Of a stretch of DNA of 64,000 nucleotides, positions 4,160-52,916 are shown in pieces. The notes under the pieces were generated by a model. The model did not search any database. It saw nothing but the letters and a program-made list of their open reading frames with translations, and was not told where the DNA came from. The stretch is from Escherichia coli. GTDB lineage: Bacteria; Pseudomonadota; Gammaproteobacteria; Enterobacterales; Enterobacteriaceae. Numbering within the stretch: position 1 is the first letter of the stretch; every line of letters starts with the position of its first letter. The stretch lies in assembly GCF_016903815.1 (NCBI RefSeq), contig NZ_CP069973.1, one strand, 5' to 3'. Position numbers and translations under genes: made by a program.

Positions 4160-4935
4160 TTTGCCGTTTTATCGATACCCACTGCCATTTTGATTTCCCG
4201 CCGTTTAGCGGCGATGAAGAGGCCAGCCTGCAACGCGCAGCACAAGCGGGCGTAGGCAAGATCATTGTTCCGGCGACAGAGGCGGAAAATTTTGCCCGCG
4301 TGCAGGCGTTAGCGGAAAAATATCAACCGCTGTATGGCGCGTTAGGGTTGCATCCGGGGATGTTAGAAAAACATAGCGATGCATCGCTGGAGCAGTTACA
4401 GCAGGCGCTGGAAAGGCATCCGGCGAAGGTGGTGGCGGTGGGGGAGATCGGCCTGGATCTCTTTGGCGACGATCCGCAATTTGAGAGGCAGCAGTGGTTA
4501 CTCGACGAACAACTGAAACTGGCGAAACGCTACGATCTGCCGGTGATCCTGCATTCACGGCGCACGCACGACAAACTGGCGATGCATCTTAAACGCCACG
4601 ATTTGCCGCGTACTGGCGTGGTTCACGGTTTTTCCGGCAGCCTGCAACAGGCTGAACGGTTTGTACAGCTGGGCTACAAAATTGGCGTAGGCGGCACTAT
4701 CACCTATCCACGCGCCAGTAAAACCCGCGATGTCATCGCAAAATTACCGCTGGCATCGTTGTTGCTGGAAACCGACGCGCCGGATATGCCGCTCAACGGT
4801 TTTCAGGGGCAGCCTAACCGCCCGGAACAGGCCGCGCGGGTGTTTGCTGTGCTTTGTGAGTTACGCTTGGAACCCGCAGATGAAATTGCCGAAGTGTTGC
4901 TTAATAACACGTATACGTTGTTTAACGTGCTGTAG
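4156..4935 (+). CDS. yjjV: TatD-family metal-dependent hydrolase
   Basis: 259-aa ORF with TTG start; HxH motif (DTHCHFDF); overlaps yjjU stop by 4 nt. Confidence 0.88.
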   Translation: MICRFIDTHCHFDFPPFSGDEEASLQRAAQAGVGKIIVPATEAENFARVQALAEKYQPLYGALGLHPGMLEKHSDASLEQLQQALERHPAKVVAVGEIGLDLFGDDPQFERQQWLLDEQLKLAKRYDLPVILHSRRTHDKLAMHLKRHDLPRTGVVHGFSGSLQQAERFVQLGYKIGVGGTITYPRASKTRDVIAKLPLASLLLETDAPDMPLNGFQGQPNRPEQAARVFAVLCELRLEPADEIAEVLLNNTYTLFNVL

Positions 4936-5050
4936 GCCGGATAAGGCGTTCACGCCGCATCCGGCAGTTGGCGCACAATGCCTGATGCGACGCTTGACGC
5001 GTCTTATCATGCCTACAAGTCTGTGCCGAACTGTAGGCCACATCCGGCAT
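4936..5050. repeat. REP/BIME cluster (about three palindromic units) between convergent yjjV and yjjW
   Basis: GCCGGATAAGGCGTTCACGCCGCATCCGGC and related palindromes read directly in the sequence. Confidence 0.8.
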
Positions 5051-5051
5051 G

Positions 5052-5915
5052 TCACAAATACAGCGCCGGAAATATCAACCGGCTCACCCCGCGCACCTTT
5101 AACGCATCAGCCAACGGCTCAACGTCTTCCGGCGTGGCGCTCGCCCAGCTTTGGGCCTCGCCATACACGCCGTGGGCATGAAACGCGTTCAGGCGTACCG
5201 GAACATCGCCAAGTCCCTTGATAAACGCCGCCAGTTCTTCGATGTGTTGCAAATAATCCACCTGGCCAGGGATTACCAGCAAACGCAGTTCCGCCAGCTT
5301 GCCGCGCTCTGCCAGCAAATAGATGCTGCGCTTAATCTGCTGATTATCGCGTCCGGTTAACTGTTGATGACATTCGCTACCCCACGCTTTGAGATCGAGC
5401 ATCGCGCCGTCGCACACCGGGAGCAATTTTTCCCAGCCGGTTTCGCTCAACATACCGTTACTGTCCACCAGACAGGTGAGATGGCACAGTTGCGGATCAT
5501 TTTTGATAGCAGTAAACAGCGCCACCACAAACGGTAGCTGGGTCGTGGCTTCGCCGCCGCTTACCGTTATCCCTTCGATAAACAGCACTGCTTTGCGGAT
5601 ATGGCTAAGCACCTCATCCACGCTCATGGACTGCGCCATTGGCGTGGCATGTTGCGGACACATCTTCAGGCAGGTATCACATTGCTCGCAGACCACAGCG
5701 TTCCACACCACTTTGCCGTCAACAATCTGCAACGCCTGATGCGGACACTGTGGCACGCACTCCCCGCAATCATTGCAACGTCCCATCGTCCACGGATTGT
5801 GACAGTTTTTGCAGCGCAGATTGCAGCCCTGCAAAAACAGAGCCAGACGACTGCCTGGCCCGTCAACGCAGGAGAAGGGGATAATCTTACTGACTAAAGC
5901 GCATCTGCTGTTCAT
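5052..5915 (-). CDS. yjjW: glycyl-radical enzyme activating protein (radical SAM)
   Basis: 287-aa ORF; CxxxCxxC cluster ([24 protein letters not shown]) plus ferredoxin-like Cys motifs. Confidence 0.9.
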
Positions 5916-7437
5916 GGCTTATCACGCGCGGCTGGCGTTCCAGAATACGAGTGTTACGTGCGGCTTCTTCTCCCAGCCAGGTGGTGTTGGTACGTGAGCC
6001 TTCGGCACGATATTTTTCCAGATCCGACAAACGCACCATATAACCAGTAACGCGAACCAGGTCGTTACCGCTGATATTGGCGGTAAATTCACGCATTCCG
6101 GCTTTAAAGGCACCGAGGCAAAGCTGTACCAGCGCCTGCGGATTACGTTTGATGGTTTCGTCGAGCGTCAGAATGTCGCTGATGCCGGAATAATAATAAG
6201 CATGATGCGGGGCGACGGTTTGCAGATGGGTGATCGGATCTGGCTCATCACCATACGGCAAACGTGCGCCCGGCGTGGTGCCGATATCGGAACTTATCCC
6301 CGACTGTGCGTGTAACATGGCGCGTTTTTGCCAGCCATATTTCACGGGGGTATTGGCGACAAACTCCGCCAGTTGCGCGCTGATGCGATAACCCACTTCA
6401 TTTGCGGCGGCCTCTTTACCGTAGCGCGCGGCAATCCCCTCTTTTTCACACAGCAAGTTAACCGCTTCCGCCAGCCCATACATGCCAAACATTGGCACAA
6501 AACGTTCAGGGTTAATCAGCCCTTCTTTCACCAGGAAGCTATTCTCAAAGAAGTGTGATTGTTGATAGAGGAATTCACACCGCGCATCGATGATGGCGAT
6601 CTGCTGCTGGCAGTAGTGCGGTAGAGTGCGCGTAAAGAAGTCTTCCAGCGATTCGCTGCGCTCGGCAATGGCTTTCAGGTTAAGGCGTACCAGCGTGCTG
6701 CCACCACCCGCCAGCGGCAGTGAGTTGTAACAGCTCACAATCCCGTAGCCCCCTTTTGTGAAAATTTTATCATGCACCGGACCGTTGGCGATGTGCGGTT
6801 TGCTACATTCACAGATGTTCTTCGCCACTTCCAGCAGTAGGTCATCAGGGGTGATTTCAGGATCGTAGATAAAGGTCAGGTTCGGTGAAACCTGCTTCAA
6901 CTCTGCGTCTGCACGTAAGATCGCGCGGGTAATGGGCGAATCAGACGGGCCGATATTGGCGTGCATAAAGGCGTCTGGCAGGGTTCTGTCGAGGTAACGC
7001 CAGAAACGTTTTATTCGAATATCGATCTCGTCTTGTGTTAGAATTCTAACATACGGTTGCAACAACGCATCCAGTTGCCCCAGGTAGACCGGCATCGATG
7101 TGACCGACGGTACGTGGTGGTAAAGAATGGTCAGCAGAGAGAGTGCGTCATCAAGATCTTTCGCGCCTTCCAGCTCCAGCCATTCGGAACCGTTCGCCAG
7201 AAAACGGGCGTAATCGGGTAAGACATAGCGCGGTTTGTACGGCGCATGACCTTCAAACATATCGCAGATTACACCCTCATCCAGCGCGTGGCGGGCTTCG
7301 GCAGGAAGCTGCGGATAAGGCAGATTGTTTTCTGCTTCCAGCGCCAGAAAATGGCGCTTCTGCTCCGGGCTAAGCACCGGGCTGGTGACAATTTGCTGGC
7401 AACGTTGTTGCAGTGCATTTTCATGAGAAGTGGGCAT
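5887..7437 (-). CDS. yjjI: glycine-radical-enzyme-like protein of unknown function (DUF3029)
   Basis: 516-aa ORF matching remembered YjjI; overlaps yjjW start by 29 nt. Confidence 0.88.
6757..6772. promoter_or_regulatory. putative DeoR operator OE (TGTGAAAATTTTATCA)
   Basis: imperfect palindrome exactly 279 bp upstream of O1, the spacing I recall for the deo operators. Confidence 0.5.
7036..7051. promoter_or_regulatory. DeoR operator O1 (TGTTAGAATTCTAACA, perfect palindrome) at deoP1
   Basis: perfect 16-bp palindrome, 599 bp upstream of a second copy. Confidence 0.75.
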
Positions 7438-7634
7438 CTTCTTTTCCTTTTATGCCGAAGGTGATGCGCCATTGTAAGAAGTTTCGTGAAGTTCACTTTG
7501 ATCCTGATGCGTTTGCCACCACTGACGCATTCATTTGAAAGTGAATTATTTGAACCAGATCGCATTACAGTGATGCAAACTTGTAAGTAGATTTCCTTAA
7601 TTGTGATGTATATCGAAGTGTGTTGCGGAGTAGA

Positions 7635-7650
7635 TGTTAGAATACTAACA
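7635..7650. promoter_or_regulatory. DeoR operator O2 (TGTTAGAATACTAACA) at deoP2
   Basis: 16-bp near-palindrome about 45 bp upstream of the deoC start codon. Confidence 0.75.
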
Positions 7651-7694
7651 AACTCGCAAGGTGAATTTTATTGGCGACAAGCCAGGAGAATGAA

Positions 7695-8474
7695 ATGACT
7701 GATCTGAAAGCAAGCAGCCTGCGTGCACTGAAATTGATGGACCTGACCACCCTGAATGACGACGACACCGACGAGAAAGTGATCGCCCTGTGTCATCAGG
7801 CCAAAACTCCGGTCGGCAATACCGCCGCTATCTGTATCTATCCTCGCTTTATCCCAATTGCTCGCAAAACGCTGAAAGAGCAGGGTACCCCGGAAATCCG
7901 TATCGCTACGGTAACCAACTTCCCACACGGTAACGACGACATCGAAATCGCGCTGGCAGAAACCCGTGCGGCAATCGCCTACGGTGCTGATGAAGTTGAC
8001 GTTGTGTTCCCGTACCGCGCGCTGATGGCGGGTAACGAGCAGGTTGGTTTTGACCTGGTGAAAGCCTGTAAAGAGGCTTGCGCGGCAGCGAATGTACTGC
8101 TGAAAGTGATCATCGAAACCGGCGAACTAAAAGACGAAGCGCTGATCCGCAAAGCGTCTGAAATCTCTATCAAAGCGGGTGCTGACTTCATCAAAACCTC
8201 TACCGGTAAAGTGGCAGTGAACGCGACGCCGGAAAGCGCGCGCATCATGATGGAAGTGATCCGTGATATGGGCGTAGAAAAAACCGTTGGTTTCAAACCG
8301 GCGGGCGGCGTGCGTACTGCGGAAGATGCGCAGAAATATCTCGCCATCGCCGATGAACTGTTCGGCGCTGACTGGGCCGATGCGCGTCACTACCGCTTTG
8401 GCGCTTCCAGCCTGCTGGCAAGCCTGCTGAAGGCTCTGGGCCACGGCGACGGTAAGAGCGCCAGCAGCTACTAA
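7695..8474 (+). CDS. deoC: deoxyribose-phosphate aldolase
   Basis: 259 aa from ATG 7695 ([24 protein letters not shown]...). Confidence 0.95.
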
Positions 8475-34104: not shown

Positions 34105-34800
34105 CACAGAAAACCCCCAGCTAGGCTGGGGGTTCCGGAAAGCTTTCAGCTTTGAGCCAGTTATTAAAACCCCTTTTGATTTGTTAAAACACCTTGCGGT
34201 CTGGCAACTGCAAGTGTCAAACAAGAAATCAAAAGGGGGTCCCAATGGGGAACGAAAAGAGCTTAGCGCACACCCGATGGAACTGTAAATATCACATAGT
34301 TTTTGCGCCAAAATACCGAAGACAGGTGTTCTACAGAGAGAAGCGTAGAGCAATAGGCAGTATTTTGAGAAAGCTGTGTGAGTGGAAAAGCGTACGGATT
34401 CTGGAAGCTGAATGCTGTGCAGATCATATCCATATGCTTGTGGAGATCCCGCCCAAAATGAGCGTATCCGGGTTTATGGGATATCTGAAAGGGAAAAGCA
34501 GTCTGATGCTTTACGAGCAGTTTGGTGATTTGAAATTCAAATACAGGAACAGGGAGTTCTGGTGCAGAGGGTACTACGTCGATACAGTGGGTAAGAACAC
34601 GGCGAAGATACAGGATTACATAAAGCACCAGCTTGAAGAGGATAAAATGGGAGAGCAGTTATCGATTCCCTATCCGGGCAGCCCGTTTACGGGCCGTAAG
34701 TAACGAAGTTGGATGCAAATGTCAGATCGTGTGCGCCTGTTAGGGCGCGGCTGGTAAGAGAGCCTTATAGGCGCATTTGAAAAACCTCCGGCTATGCCGG
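34105..34800 (+). mobile_element. IS200-like element (IS200/IS605 family); ends approximate
   Basis: 152-aa Y1 tnpA preceded by a perfect terminal hairpin (CCCCCAGC-TAG-GCTGGGGG, 34114..34132) and a 13-bp stem (34170..34182 with 34227..34239) that sequesters the RBS. Confidence 0.6.
34245..34703 (+). CDS. tnpA: IS200-family transposase TnpA (HUH / Y1)
   Basis: 152 aa from ATG 34245 (MGNEKSLAHTRWNCKYHIVFAPKYRR...), near-identical to remembered Salmonella IS200 TnpA; HxH motif HIHMLVEIPP. Confidence 0.9.
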   Translation: MGNEKSLAHTRWNCKYHIVFAPKYRRQVFYREKRRAIGSILRKLCEWKSVRILEAECCADHIHMLVEIPPKMSVSGFMGYLKGKSSLMLYEQFGDLKFKYRNREFWCRGYYVDTVGKNTAKIQDYIKHQLEEDKMGEQLSIPYPGSPFTGRK

Positions 34801-37079: not shown

Positions 37080-37148
<69 letters not shown>

Positions 37149-37166
37149 CGCGTACAGGAAACACAG

Positions 37167-37203
37167 AAAAAAGCCCGCACCTGACAGTGCGGGCTTTTTT
37201 TTC
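37167..37203 (+). terminator. thr attenuator terminator
   Basis: AAAAGCCCGCACCTGACAGTGCGGGCTTTTTTTT. Confidence 0.85.
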
Positions 37204-50856: not shown

Positions 50857-50944
50857 TCGCCCTATAAACGGGTAATTATACTGACACGGGCGAAGGGGAA
50901 TTTCCTCTCCGCCCGTGCATTCATCTAGGGGCAATTTAAAAAAG
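50857..50944 (+). ncRNA. putative structured dnaK-dnaJ intergenic RNA (tpke11 position in K-12)
   Basis: hairpin ACGGGCGAAGGGGAATTTCCTCTCCGCCCGT in the 88-bp spacer; K-12 annotation from memory. Confidence 0.25.
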
Positions 50945-52178: not shown

Positions 52179-52331
52179 TTACTCGGATTCGTAAGCCGTG
52201 AAAACAGCAACCTCCGTCTGGCCAGTTCGGATGTGAACCTCACAGAGGTCTTTTCTCGTTACCAGCGCCGCCACTACGGCGGTGATACAGATGACGATCA
52301 GGGCGACAATCATCGCCTTATGCTGCTTCAT
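52179..52331 (-). CDS. hokC: Hok-family membrane toxin HokC (type I toxin)
   Basis: 50 aa, MKQHKAMIVALIVICITAVVAALVTRKDLCEVHIRTGQTEVAVFTAYESE. Confidence 0.85.
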   Translation of the reverse strand: MKQHKAMIVALIVICITAVVAALVTRKDLCEVHIRTGQTEVAVFTAYESE

Positions 52332-52388
52332 TGCTCTCTTCTCCTTGACCTTACGGTCAGTAAGAGGCACTCTACATGTGTTCAGCAT
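52179..52388 (-). CDS. mokC: MokC, overlapping reading frame that enables hokC translation
   Basis: 69-aa frame from ATG 52388 (MLNTCRVPLTDRKVKEKRA...) running into hokC in the same frame. Confidence 0.6.
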   Translation of the reverse strand: MLNTCRVPLTDRKVKEKRAMKQHKAMIVALIVICITAVVAALVTRKDLCEVHIRTGQTEVAVFTAYESE

Positions 52389-52434
52389 ATAGGGAGCCTC
52401 GGGTTGATGGTAAAATATCACTCGGGGCTTTTCT
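52380..52434 (+). ncRNA. sokC: SokC antisense RNA (type I antitoxin); coordinates transferred from K-12 by offset
   Basis: position antisense to the mokC start; typical hok/sok architecture. Confidence 0.4.
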
Positions 52435-52916
52435 CTATCTGCCGTTCAGCTAATGCCTGAGACAGATAGCCTCAAGCACCCGCCGCTATTATATCGCTCT
52501 CTTTAACCCATTCTGTTTTATCGATTCTAATCCTGAAGACGCCTCGTATTTTTATGGCGTAATTTTTTAATGATTTAATTATTTAACTTTAATTTATCTC
52601 TTCATCGCAATTATTGACGACAAGCTGGATTATTTTTGAAATATTGGCCTAACAAACATCGCCGACTGACAACAAATTAATTATTACTTTTCCTAATTAA
52701 TCCCTCAGAAATCCTGACCTTAAGCTATGATTATCAGGGCTTAGGGTCACTCGTGAGCGCTTACAGCCGTCAAAAACTCATCTCATCGCTAATGGCACAA
52801 ATCCTTCAATGGTTCGTAAAAAACGAATTATTCCTACACTATAATCTGATTTTAACGATGATTCGTGCGGGGTAAGATAGTAAAAACGATCTATTCACCT
52901 GAAAGAGAAATAAAAA

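Follow-up and report, generated by a model that had tools for sequence, protein, structure and literature searches.

The yjjI–yjjW pair of Escherichia coli: a probable anaerobic operon for an orphan, barrel-only glycyl radical enzyme and its dedicated activase

Which reaction does the yjjI–yjjW gene pair of Escherichia coli serve, and how is its product likely to be expressed and activated? The pair is already known as a named, curated orphan family, and we examined it in a 64,000-nucleotide (nt) stretch of one E. coli genome (contig NZ_CP069973.1, assembly GCF_016903815.1), referred to throughout as the window. Our analysis indicates that yjjI–yjjW is very probably an anaerobically expressed two-gene operon encoding an orphan, barrel-only glycyl radical enzyme (GRE) together with its dedicated activase, for which a mechanism can be proposed. 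The open reading frame (ORF) list of the window places the two genes as given below, and the other reading frames at the locus are short shadow ORFs only.

5887..7437, minus strand: yjjI coding sequence, 516 residues; barrel-only GRE of the YjjI family (PF11230/TIGR04040)
5052..5915, minus strand: yjjW coding sequence, 287 residues; dedicated radical S-adenosylmethionine (SAM) activating enzyme, by its TIGR04041 match, PflA alignment and matches to structures of the pyruvate formate-lyase (PFL) activating enzyme (PFL-AE)
5887..5915, minus strand: 29 nt shared by the end of yjjI and the start of yjjW, as delimited by the ORFs; probable translational coupling

That YjjI is a homologue of the GREs, as the original prediction had it, is borne out by family profiles far above chance: YjjI matches Pfam PF11230 ('YjjI-like') with an E-value of 3e-220 (732 bits; cut-off 23) and NCBIfam TIGR04040 with 787.6 bits (cut-off 498.3) over model positions 1–497 of 497. 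The GRE superfamily is recognized by a C-terminal RVxG[FWY] fingerprint that carries the radical glycine (PMC11528403), and the RVTGY sequence at residues 462–466 of YjjI fits this fingerprint. The glycine that the original prediction had proposed to look for in the C-terminus is thus G465, which is invariant in 27 diverse homologues. The motifs on which the assignment turns lie at the following positions.

6040..6054, minus strand: RVTGY glycyl-radical fingerprint, residues 462–466; aligns with PFL RVSGY, with R462 and G465 invariant in the 27 homologues
6043-6045, minus strand: G465, predicted radical site, at the tip of a predicted beta-hairpin in the AlphaFold 2 model
6724..6735, minus strand: Cys loop S235-C236-Y237-N238; S235 and C236 align with PFL C418 and C419
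6730-6732, minus strand: C236, predicted thiyl-radical cysteine, at the hairpin tip between strands 231–234 and 238–241 of the AlphaFold 2 model
6679..6687, minus strand: R251-L252-N253, in the strand that follows the Cys loop; aligned to R435-A-N437 of PFL and S-L-N of NrdD

In the alignment of the 27 homologues (29–90% identity), G83, G120, D123, L174, C236, E305, G418, R462 and G465 are invariant, C236 being the sole invariant cysteine of the family. S235, N238 and R251 are each conserved in at least 90% of the sequences, and H159, K213, H376, Q378 and R392 are further conserved basic or polar residues. Besides the fingerprint, YjjI possesses a mid-protein cysteine on a finger loop (C236, from the alignment and the hairpin tip of the model), a ten-stranded alpha/beta barrel in the predicted fold, common to the ribonucleotide reductases (RNRs), and an adjacent dedicated radical-SAM activase. 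Judged from its sequence, YjjI carries every testable feature of the superfamily, yet its reaction can be taken over from no characterized class.

The YjjI family is small, since phmmer with YjjI against 1.84 billion cluster representatives returned only 539 matches at E ≤0.001, of which ~25 are full length. Its distribution is patchy, covering Enterobacterales, Orbales, Vibrionaceae and Ferrimonas among the Gammaproteobacteria, and, further afield, 'Xenophilus sp. AP218F', Ilumatobacteraceae (Actinomycetota), Oligoflexia and several metagenomic lineages, with one homologue found on a contig where archaeal translation genes are its neighbours. One 574-residue NCBI protein on a 2.9-kb contig (P0004), with 100% identity to YjjI across 90% of the query, additionally carries PF01791 (DeoC/LacD aldolase); because yjjI and deoC are divergent, it appears to result from an error of assembly or gene calling and not to be a genuine fusion.

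The partner protein, YjjW, matches TIGR04041 with 397.6 bits (cut-off 250), and its weaker NCBIfam matches are all to GRE activases, i.e., those of HypD, PFL, sulfopropanediol dehydratase, CutC, HPAD and BssD. PFL-AE structures are matched at 1.6e-19. YjjW is 27% identical to PflA, and its VDGPGSR (residues 17–23), CNLRCKNC (31–38) and VSGGEA (118–123) motifs all align with PflA, the DGPGxR, CX3CX2C and GGE motifs being common to both; however, YjjW contains a 45-residue, eight-cysteine insert that PflA does not have.

5802..5825, minus strand: radical-SAM cluster motif CNLRCKNC of YjjW (C31, C35, C38); aligns with the PflA CX3CX2C motif
5658..5777, minus strand: ferredoxin-like insert of YjjW, residues 47–86, with two CX2CX2CX3C motifs (47–57 and 76–86)

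The insert matches Pfam Fer4_9 and Fer4_7 as well as ferredoxin and polyferredoxin chains in the PDB, and is predicted to bind two auxiliary [4Fe-4S] clusters. By these two cluster motifs YjjW fits the ferredoxin-domain (non-PFL) subclass of GRE activases, and the original prediction, a radical-SAM activase with a CX3CX2C cluster and ferredoxin-like cysteine motifs, was right on both features. The two auxiliary-cluster motifs are not universal in the family, given that three homologous loci, of actinobacterial, archaeal-context and one other distant lineage, encode activases of 247–250 residues with no ferredoxin Pfam match (L082, 9557-10309; L092, 9621-10364; L095, 2785-3528). As a separate observation, a sigma-54 promoter-like sequence, CTGGCTCTGTTTTTGCA, lies inside yjjW at 5830-5846 on the minus strand, in the LALFLQ codons that directly precede the CX3CX2C motif. 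The intragenic sense site IS57 of a sigma-54 chromatin immunoprecipitation sequencing (ChIP-seq) study, which gave a comparatively strong signal there, has the identical sequence (FAT 17; PMC4591121).

The two genes are held together both within the species and beyond it. At a criterion of at least 80% of the query covered, BLAST finds the pair in all but four of the complete E. coli genomes (5422 of 5426), so that it belongs to the core of the species; copies of repetitive extragenic palindromic (REP) sequences account for the BLAST places, a median of 35 in each genome. Positions 4900-7700 of the window are 100% identical to E. coli strain 7/2 and several other genomes, and RefSeq annotates yjjV, yjjW, yjjI and deoC on the 100% identical E. 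coli genome, with an identical yjjI/yjjW overlap. The window is E. coli chromosome; its yjjI–yjjW coordinates also match those annotated in K-12 for b4379 and b4380, and we saw no deviation from the reference annotation in the window. Across species, yjjI and yjjW are adjacent in 16 of 16 diverse loci, as expected of the conserved pair originally proposed, and in all other contigs examined except one (L096), a 1.8-kb contig on which the cut neighbour is too short to classify. Among the 16 loci, the overlap is likewise 29 nt in Enterobacteriaceae, Hafnia, Proteus, Providencia and 'Xenophilus sp. AP218F', and it ranges from 26 to 29 nt across the Gammaproteobacteria examined; Vibrio sp. HN007 has no overlap and a gap of ~70 nt, and an actinobacterial homologue overlaps by only 4 nt. 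The overlap of 29 nt was given correctly by the original prediction, the ORF list and RefSeq returning the same coordinates, but "co-translated" was too loose a word for it: the overlap shows co-transcription, and translational coupling of the two genes is plausible from their arrangement, whereas co-translation is not demonstrated by an overlap.

How far can known GREs inform the chemistry? In the hhalign alignment with E. coli PflB (PDB 2PFL/1H16; probability 95%, 470 columns, from PFL residue 166), C236 of YjjI corresponds to C419, R251 to the pyruvate-binding R435, N253 to N437, TPGAR to TPDGR and RVTGY to RVSGY. As a single sequence YjjI found nothing useful among the PDB sequences, PFL (E 3e-4) and NrdD (E 3e-3) being reached by the HMMER family profile only; some distant members of the family score above the Pfam thresholds for NRDD and PFL-like alike. 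The profile match to PFL, the alignment of R251 and the older EcoGene/HI0521 label of the Haemophilus influenzae protein as 'pflB homolog / formate acetyltransferase' (PMC3228777) all speak for a PFL-like 2-keto-acid formate-lyase. We nevertheless find this hardly credible, since such chemistry needs the C418–C419 pair and YjjI has S235–C236, with the Ser, in place of C418, nearly invariant; in addition, YjjI lacks ~165 N-terminal PFL residues and several insertions, and E. coli YjjI has no significant Pfam PFL-like or Gly_radical match. An RNR-like role, in which YjjI would be a stripped-down reductase that removes a ribose hydroxyl from a nucleotide, nucleoside or ribose phosphate with formate or a thiol as reductant, is improbable for other reasons. 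NrdD, the class III RNR (PDB 9d3x, 4u3e, 8p23), has 640–712 residues, compared with 516 in YjjI, and YjjI possesses neither a counterpart of the second essential NrdD cysteine (T4 C79/E. coli C175) nor the C-terminal Cys4 zinc ribbon nor the N-terminal regulatory region; its last cysteine is C440, with no C-terminal CX2C pair. The finger loop spans 28 residues from Cys to Asn in NrdD but 17, a PFL-like length, in YjjI. The activases differ as well: NrdG has 154 residues, whereas YjjW, of PFL-AE type with two ferredoxin motifs, has 287 and reaches only 47.5 bits against TIGR02491 (NrdG type; cut-off 126). YjjI itself scores 11.5 bits against PF13597 (NRDD), below the cut-off of 26.2, and matches no NrdD model in NCBIfam. 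Aligned with a single NrdD sequence, it gives an hhalign probability of only 64%, with the Cys loop misplaced and NrdD C175 in a gap; this alignment was used for residue mapping at the LNL strand only. Furthermore, E. coli nrdD and nrdG mutants do not grow under strict anaerobiosis, so YjjI does not replace NrdD. Judged by these features, YjjI is not a class III RNR.

A third class, the GRE 1,2-eliminases and dehydratases, is set apart by its catalytic Cys-x-Glu motif (Glu at Cys+2), found in glycerol dehydratase (GDH), CutC, HypD and IslA; propanediol dehydratase belongs to the class as well. YjjI reads C236-Y237-N238 at this position, with the Asn kept in at least 90% of homologues, and because N238 stands where the Glu should be, YjjI is not a Cys-x-Glu eliminase; it is also ~250–300 residues shorter than these enzymes, and yjjI is not accompanied by transporter, phosphotransferase system or microcompartment genes. 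The E. coli GREs YbiW and PflD, which count among this group, are now assigned to the cleavage of 1,5-anhydrohexitol-6-phosphates (PMC12441222), and in having assigned substrates both differ from YjjI. The signature of YjjI, i.e., S-C-Y-N with one cysteine and no Glu at Cys+2, the R251/N253 strand, TPGAR, and invariant D123 and E305, is unlike that of every characterized class, which argues against PFL-type C–C cleavage, canonical class III ribonucleotide reduction and Cys-x-Glu 1,2-elimination alike. The original prediction held that the substrate had yet to be reported, and this still stands: the full texts of 7.7 million PubMed Central (PMC) papers and bioRxiv, with subscription-only literature outside the scope, contain no substrate assignment for YjjI.

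As to expression, ChIP-seq and transcriptome data show that yjjI is directly bound by FNR and anaerobically activated, with the transcription start given as 'not known' and a peak at 4,615,181 (PMC3688515), and other data sets concur on the anaerobic expression of yjjI. The ChIP coordinates are offset by 1977 from NC_000913.3, as calibrated on the sigma-54 motif (reported 4,613,489, equal to window 5830-5846 and to 4,615,466 in NC_000913.3), which places the FNR peak at about window position 7530. The elements in its vicinity are listed below.

7498..7511, minus strand: FNR-like site CGCAT-CAGG-ATCAA, matching TTGAT-N4-ATCAA at 7 of 10 positions
7471..7476, minus strand: putative -10 hexamer TACAAT of yjjI, kept as TACAAT or TACACT in 10 genera; promoter function is presumed
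7441..7449, minus strand: Shine-Dalgarno-like AAGGAAAAG upstream of the yjjI ATG, with a largely conserved GGAA core

The FNR-like 14-mer is centred at 7504.5, ~25 bp from the peak, and its core GGATCAAA (7498-7505) is invariant in the yjjI upstream alignment of 10 genera. Outside the deoP2 elements, this core and TACAAT/TACACT are the only two invariant upstream blocks. The hexamer lies 21 nt downstream of the FNR-like site, which would put the site at about -40.5 from the implied start, the geometry of a class II FNR promoter; the FNR-like site and the hexamer thus outline a putative promoter. A second candidate, TCGATATACATCAC (7603-7616), was rejected as an FNR site, being the deoP2 CRP site known from CRP ChIP (PMC4287617) and lying 80 bp from the FNR peak. 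The same CRP study maps by ChIP-seq a site, CGTACCGTCGGTCACA, inside yjjI of the enterotoxigenic E. coli strain H10407, and this sequence is unchanged in the window at 7099-7114 on the minus strand (PMC4287617). At the other end of the operon, repeats separate yjjW from the convergent yjjV:

4935..5050, no strand assigned: REP sequences/bacterial interspersed mosaic elements between yjjV and yjjW, by sequence and by an Rfam naRNA4 (REP-derived) match at 4935-5013 with 76.6 bits

These repeats are probably the 3' boundary of the yjjI–yjjW operon. The yjjV–yjjW gap measures 117 bp in the window versus 420 bp in K-12 MG1655.

Gene neighbourhoods offer a lead on the substrate. A related-locus search with a 14-sequence alignment supplied the closest 80 loci, mostly from Enterobacteriaceae, of at least 591 positive genomes. 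In Enterobacteriaceae and Hafnia, yjjI–yjjW is divergent from deoCABD. In the Orbaceae Gilliamella and Orbus, the pair comes last in a co-directional string of nucleoside-catabolism genes, in the order purine nucleoside phosphorylase (deoD), NupG-like symporter, adenosine deaminase (Gilliamella), 5'-nucleotidase, cytidine deaminase, pyrimidine-nucleoside phosphorylase (deoA), yjjI and yjjW; a second 5'-nucleotidase copy precedes yjjI in Orbus and in one Gilliamella locus (L073), and in Orbus yjjI follows after a gap of 53 bp. In H. influenzae type f, YjjI, a radical-SAM protein and a NupC/NupG transporter are encoded on one 3.1-kb segment (PMC5609409). A homologue search seeded with Gilliamella YjjI contained no Pasteurellaceae protein among the matches listed. 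The neighbouring H. influenzae genes HI0518 and HI0519 are presumably deoD and nupC. Three arrangements therefore occur in three sister orders (Enterobacterales, Orbales and Pasteurellales), each beside genes for nucleoside catabolism or uptake. Apart from Orbus, no recurrent informative neighbour was seen in the representatives examined (twelve, ten of them non-Orbaceae), where isolated neighbours include a major facilitator superfamily transporter and GDPD in L091, His_Phos_1 in L061, and a nitroreductase near L092 and L104.

Within the window, the deo operon and yjjI are interleaved. The DeoR operator O1 at promoter deoP1 is a perfect palindrome, TGTTAGAATTCTAACA, which lies at 7036-7051 inside yjjI and encodes V129-R-I-L-T133, exactly 599 bp from the intergenic deoO2, TGTTAGAATACTAACA, at 7635-7650. 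O1 is kept with 0–1 mismatch in every genus examined that has a divergent deoC (Escherichia, Citrobacter, Salmonella, Lelliottia, Kosakonia, Yokenella, Atlantibacter, Hafnia, Kluyvera and others) and is absent in Proteus, Providencia, Gilliamella and Vibrionaceae. Owing to the position of O1 and P1 inside yjjI, deoP1 transcripts would run antisense through the first ~400 nt of yjjI and its promoter.

Elsewhere in the family, three loci, from Photobacterium, Vibrio sp. HN007 and the genome carrying protein P0121, have a convergent LysR-family gene directly downstream of yjjW (Vibrionaceae loci L078, 10452-11423, and L101, 11475-12407; further locus L098, 10466-11362), which is possibly a dedicated regulator of the pair in Vibrionaceae. 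The LacI-family gene downstream of the pair in Aliivibrio was considered as CytR and rejected, because it adjoins edd and a gluconokinase-like gene and is likelier a gluconate regulator. In one distant lineage (L104, 6901-9262) the order is reversed, with the activase preceding YjjI, just upstream of a Firmicute-like string of housekeeping genes, sua5-rpiB-glyA-upp-atpI.

We propose the following mechanism for yjjI–yjjW. Upon anoxia, FNR would switch on the class II-type promoter ahead of yjjI. The same mRNA would serve for the translation of yjjW, probably coupled to that of yjjI through the 29-nt overlap. YjjW would bind SAM at the [4Fe-4S] cluster held by C31, C35 and C38 and cleave it reductively, the two auxiliary ferredoxin-type clusters feeding electrons to the SAM cluster, and the 5'-deoxyadenosyl radical so formed would take its hydrogen from YjjI at G465. 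During turnover, the radical would move from the glycine to C236, which sits at the tip of the finger loop opposite, and the thiyl radical there would abstract hydrogen from the substrate. We observed directly the genes, their motifs, the predicted fold, the conservation and the pairing that underlie this scheme, and FNR binding and FNR-dependent expression are published; from these we infer radical formation and relay, the layout of the promoter and the kind of substrate. As regards the last, R251 is equivalent to R435 of PFL, which binds a carboxylate, and thus points to a small, negatively charged substrate (a carboxylate or phosphate); the conserved H159, K213, H376, Q378 and R392 likewise suggest an anionic small molecule, and the usual stand-alone position of the pair speaks for a cytosolic metabolite of common occurrence. 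As the best lead we put forward, only tentatively, a compound that arises in nucleoside catabolism (a pentose phosphate, nucleoside or base). Elaborated, this lead would make YjjI the barrel-only, RNR-related catalytic core of a step, so far undescribed, in the anaerobic catabolism or salvage of nucleosides, with chemistry (S-C-Y-N loop, single Cys) unlike that of the known classes; its candidate substrates would be products of nucleoside phosphorolysis, namely the 1- or 5-phosphate of ribose or deoxyribose, or a nucleobase, and in enterobacteria its expression would be interlocked with that of the deo operon through O1/P1 antisense transcription in its coding sequence. In this full form we consider the proposal unlikely.

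Several points weigh against the scheme or against the nucleoside lead attached to it. No published experiment on the YjjI or YjjW protein was found in the literature searched; radical formation and catalysis are deduced from homology only, and the R251–R435 equivalence from a sequence alignment. The FNR-like site is a half-site (7/10), with conservation confined to its 3' half. No nucleoside genes stand beside the pair in Proteus, Providencia, Aliivibrio, Photobacterium, Vibrio or Ferrimonas, nor in 'Xenophilus sp. AP218F', Ilumatobacteraceae, the archaeon or the other metagenomic lineages examined, and the nucleoside link, being confined to three sister orders, could be inherited synteny. 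Moreover, the deo O1/P1 region embedded in yjjI could by itself preserve the synteny in Enterobacteriaceae with no shared function needed, and it is for this reason that a nucleoside-derived substrate is rated so cautiously.

A rival explanation, which we judge evenly balanced, is that the deo/nup neighbourhood is historical or regulatory, that YjjI acts on a ubiquitous, non-nucleoside central metabolite, and that synteny is held by O1/P1 inside yjjI. The conservation of O1 wherever deoC is divergent and its absence elsewhere argue for it, as do Proteus, which keeps lplA-ytjB-yjjI-yjjW without deoCABD, and the distant homologues, which are stand-alone two-gene cassettes in unrelated contexts. 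It accounts less readily for the Orbaceae, where a different, operon-like co-directional arrangement behind deoA/ushA is kept in two genera, or for Haemophilus, where a third arrangement stands beside nupC; a link that survives rearrangement is unexpected under neutral synteny. A role in anaerobic nitrogen-oxide metabolism, i.e., nitrate/nitrite respiration or NO stress, derives from the only functional proposal that we found for yjjI, a 2011 co-expression prediction of 'nitrogen metabolism' made from a conserved E. coli/Salmonella expression bicluster of yjjI with narG and FNR- and NarL-like motifs (PMC3228777). This role appears very improbable, because the co-expression is explained by shared FNR control, the upstream region has, besides the deoP2 elements, no invariant blocks except the FNR-like half-site and the -10 hexamer, inspection of the yjjI upstream region by eye revealed no convincing pair of NarL/NarP heptamers, and no nitrogen-oxide gene is a conserved neighbour in the loci examined. 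To our knowledge, no GRE acts on inorganic nitrogen species.

Elsewhere in the window, Rfam matches at the gathering score mark an STnc490 small RNA (34112-34235), the threonine operon leader (37084-37203) and tpke11 (50867-50944), together with a sok antitoxin RNA at 52329-52481 on the minus strand that implies a hok/sok-type locus.

For E. coli, the assignment of YbiW and PflD leaves YjjI, in the searchable literature, apparently the last GRE of the species without a substrate. A 2025 paper that lists the E. coli GREs does not mention it, and one major GRE survey was built on two InterPro families, the PFL domain and class III RNR (PMC11528403), outside both of which YjjI falls, so that it may be overlooked. 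To the named pair, the present analysis adds a structural placement with respect to RNR and PFL, the exclusion of three catalytic signatures, a conserved promoter model and the nucleoside lead. The linkage to nucleoside clusters in bee-gut Orbaceae and in Haemophilus gives a short, testable list of candidate substrates. As the smallest full-barrel GRE, structurally between the RNRs and the PFL-like enzymes, YjjI is likely to perform new chemistry and could bear on the divergence of both lineages.

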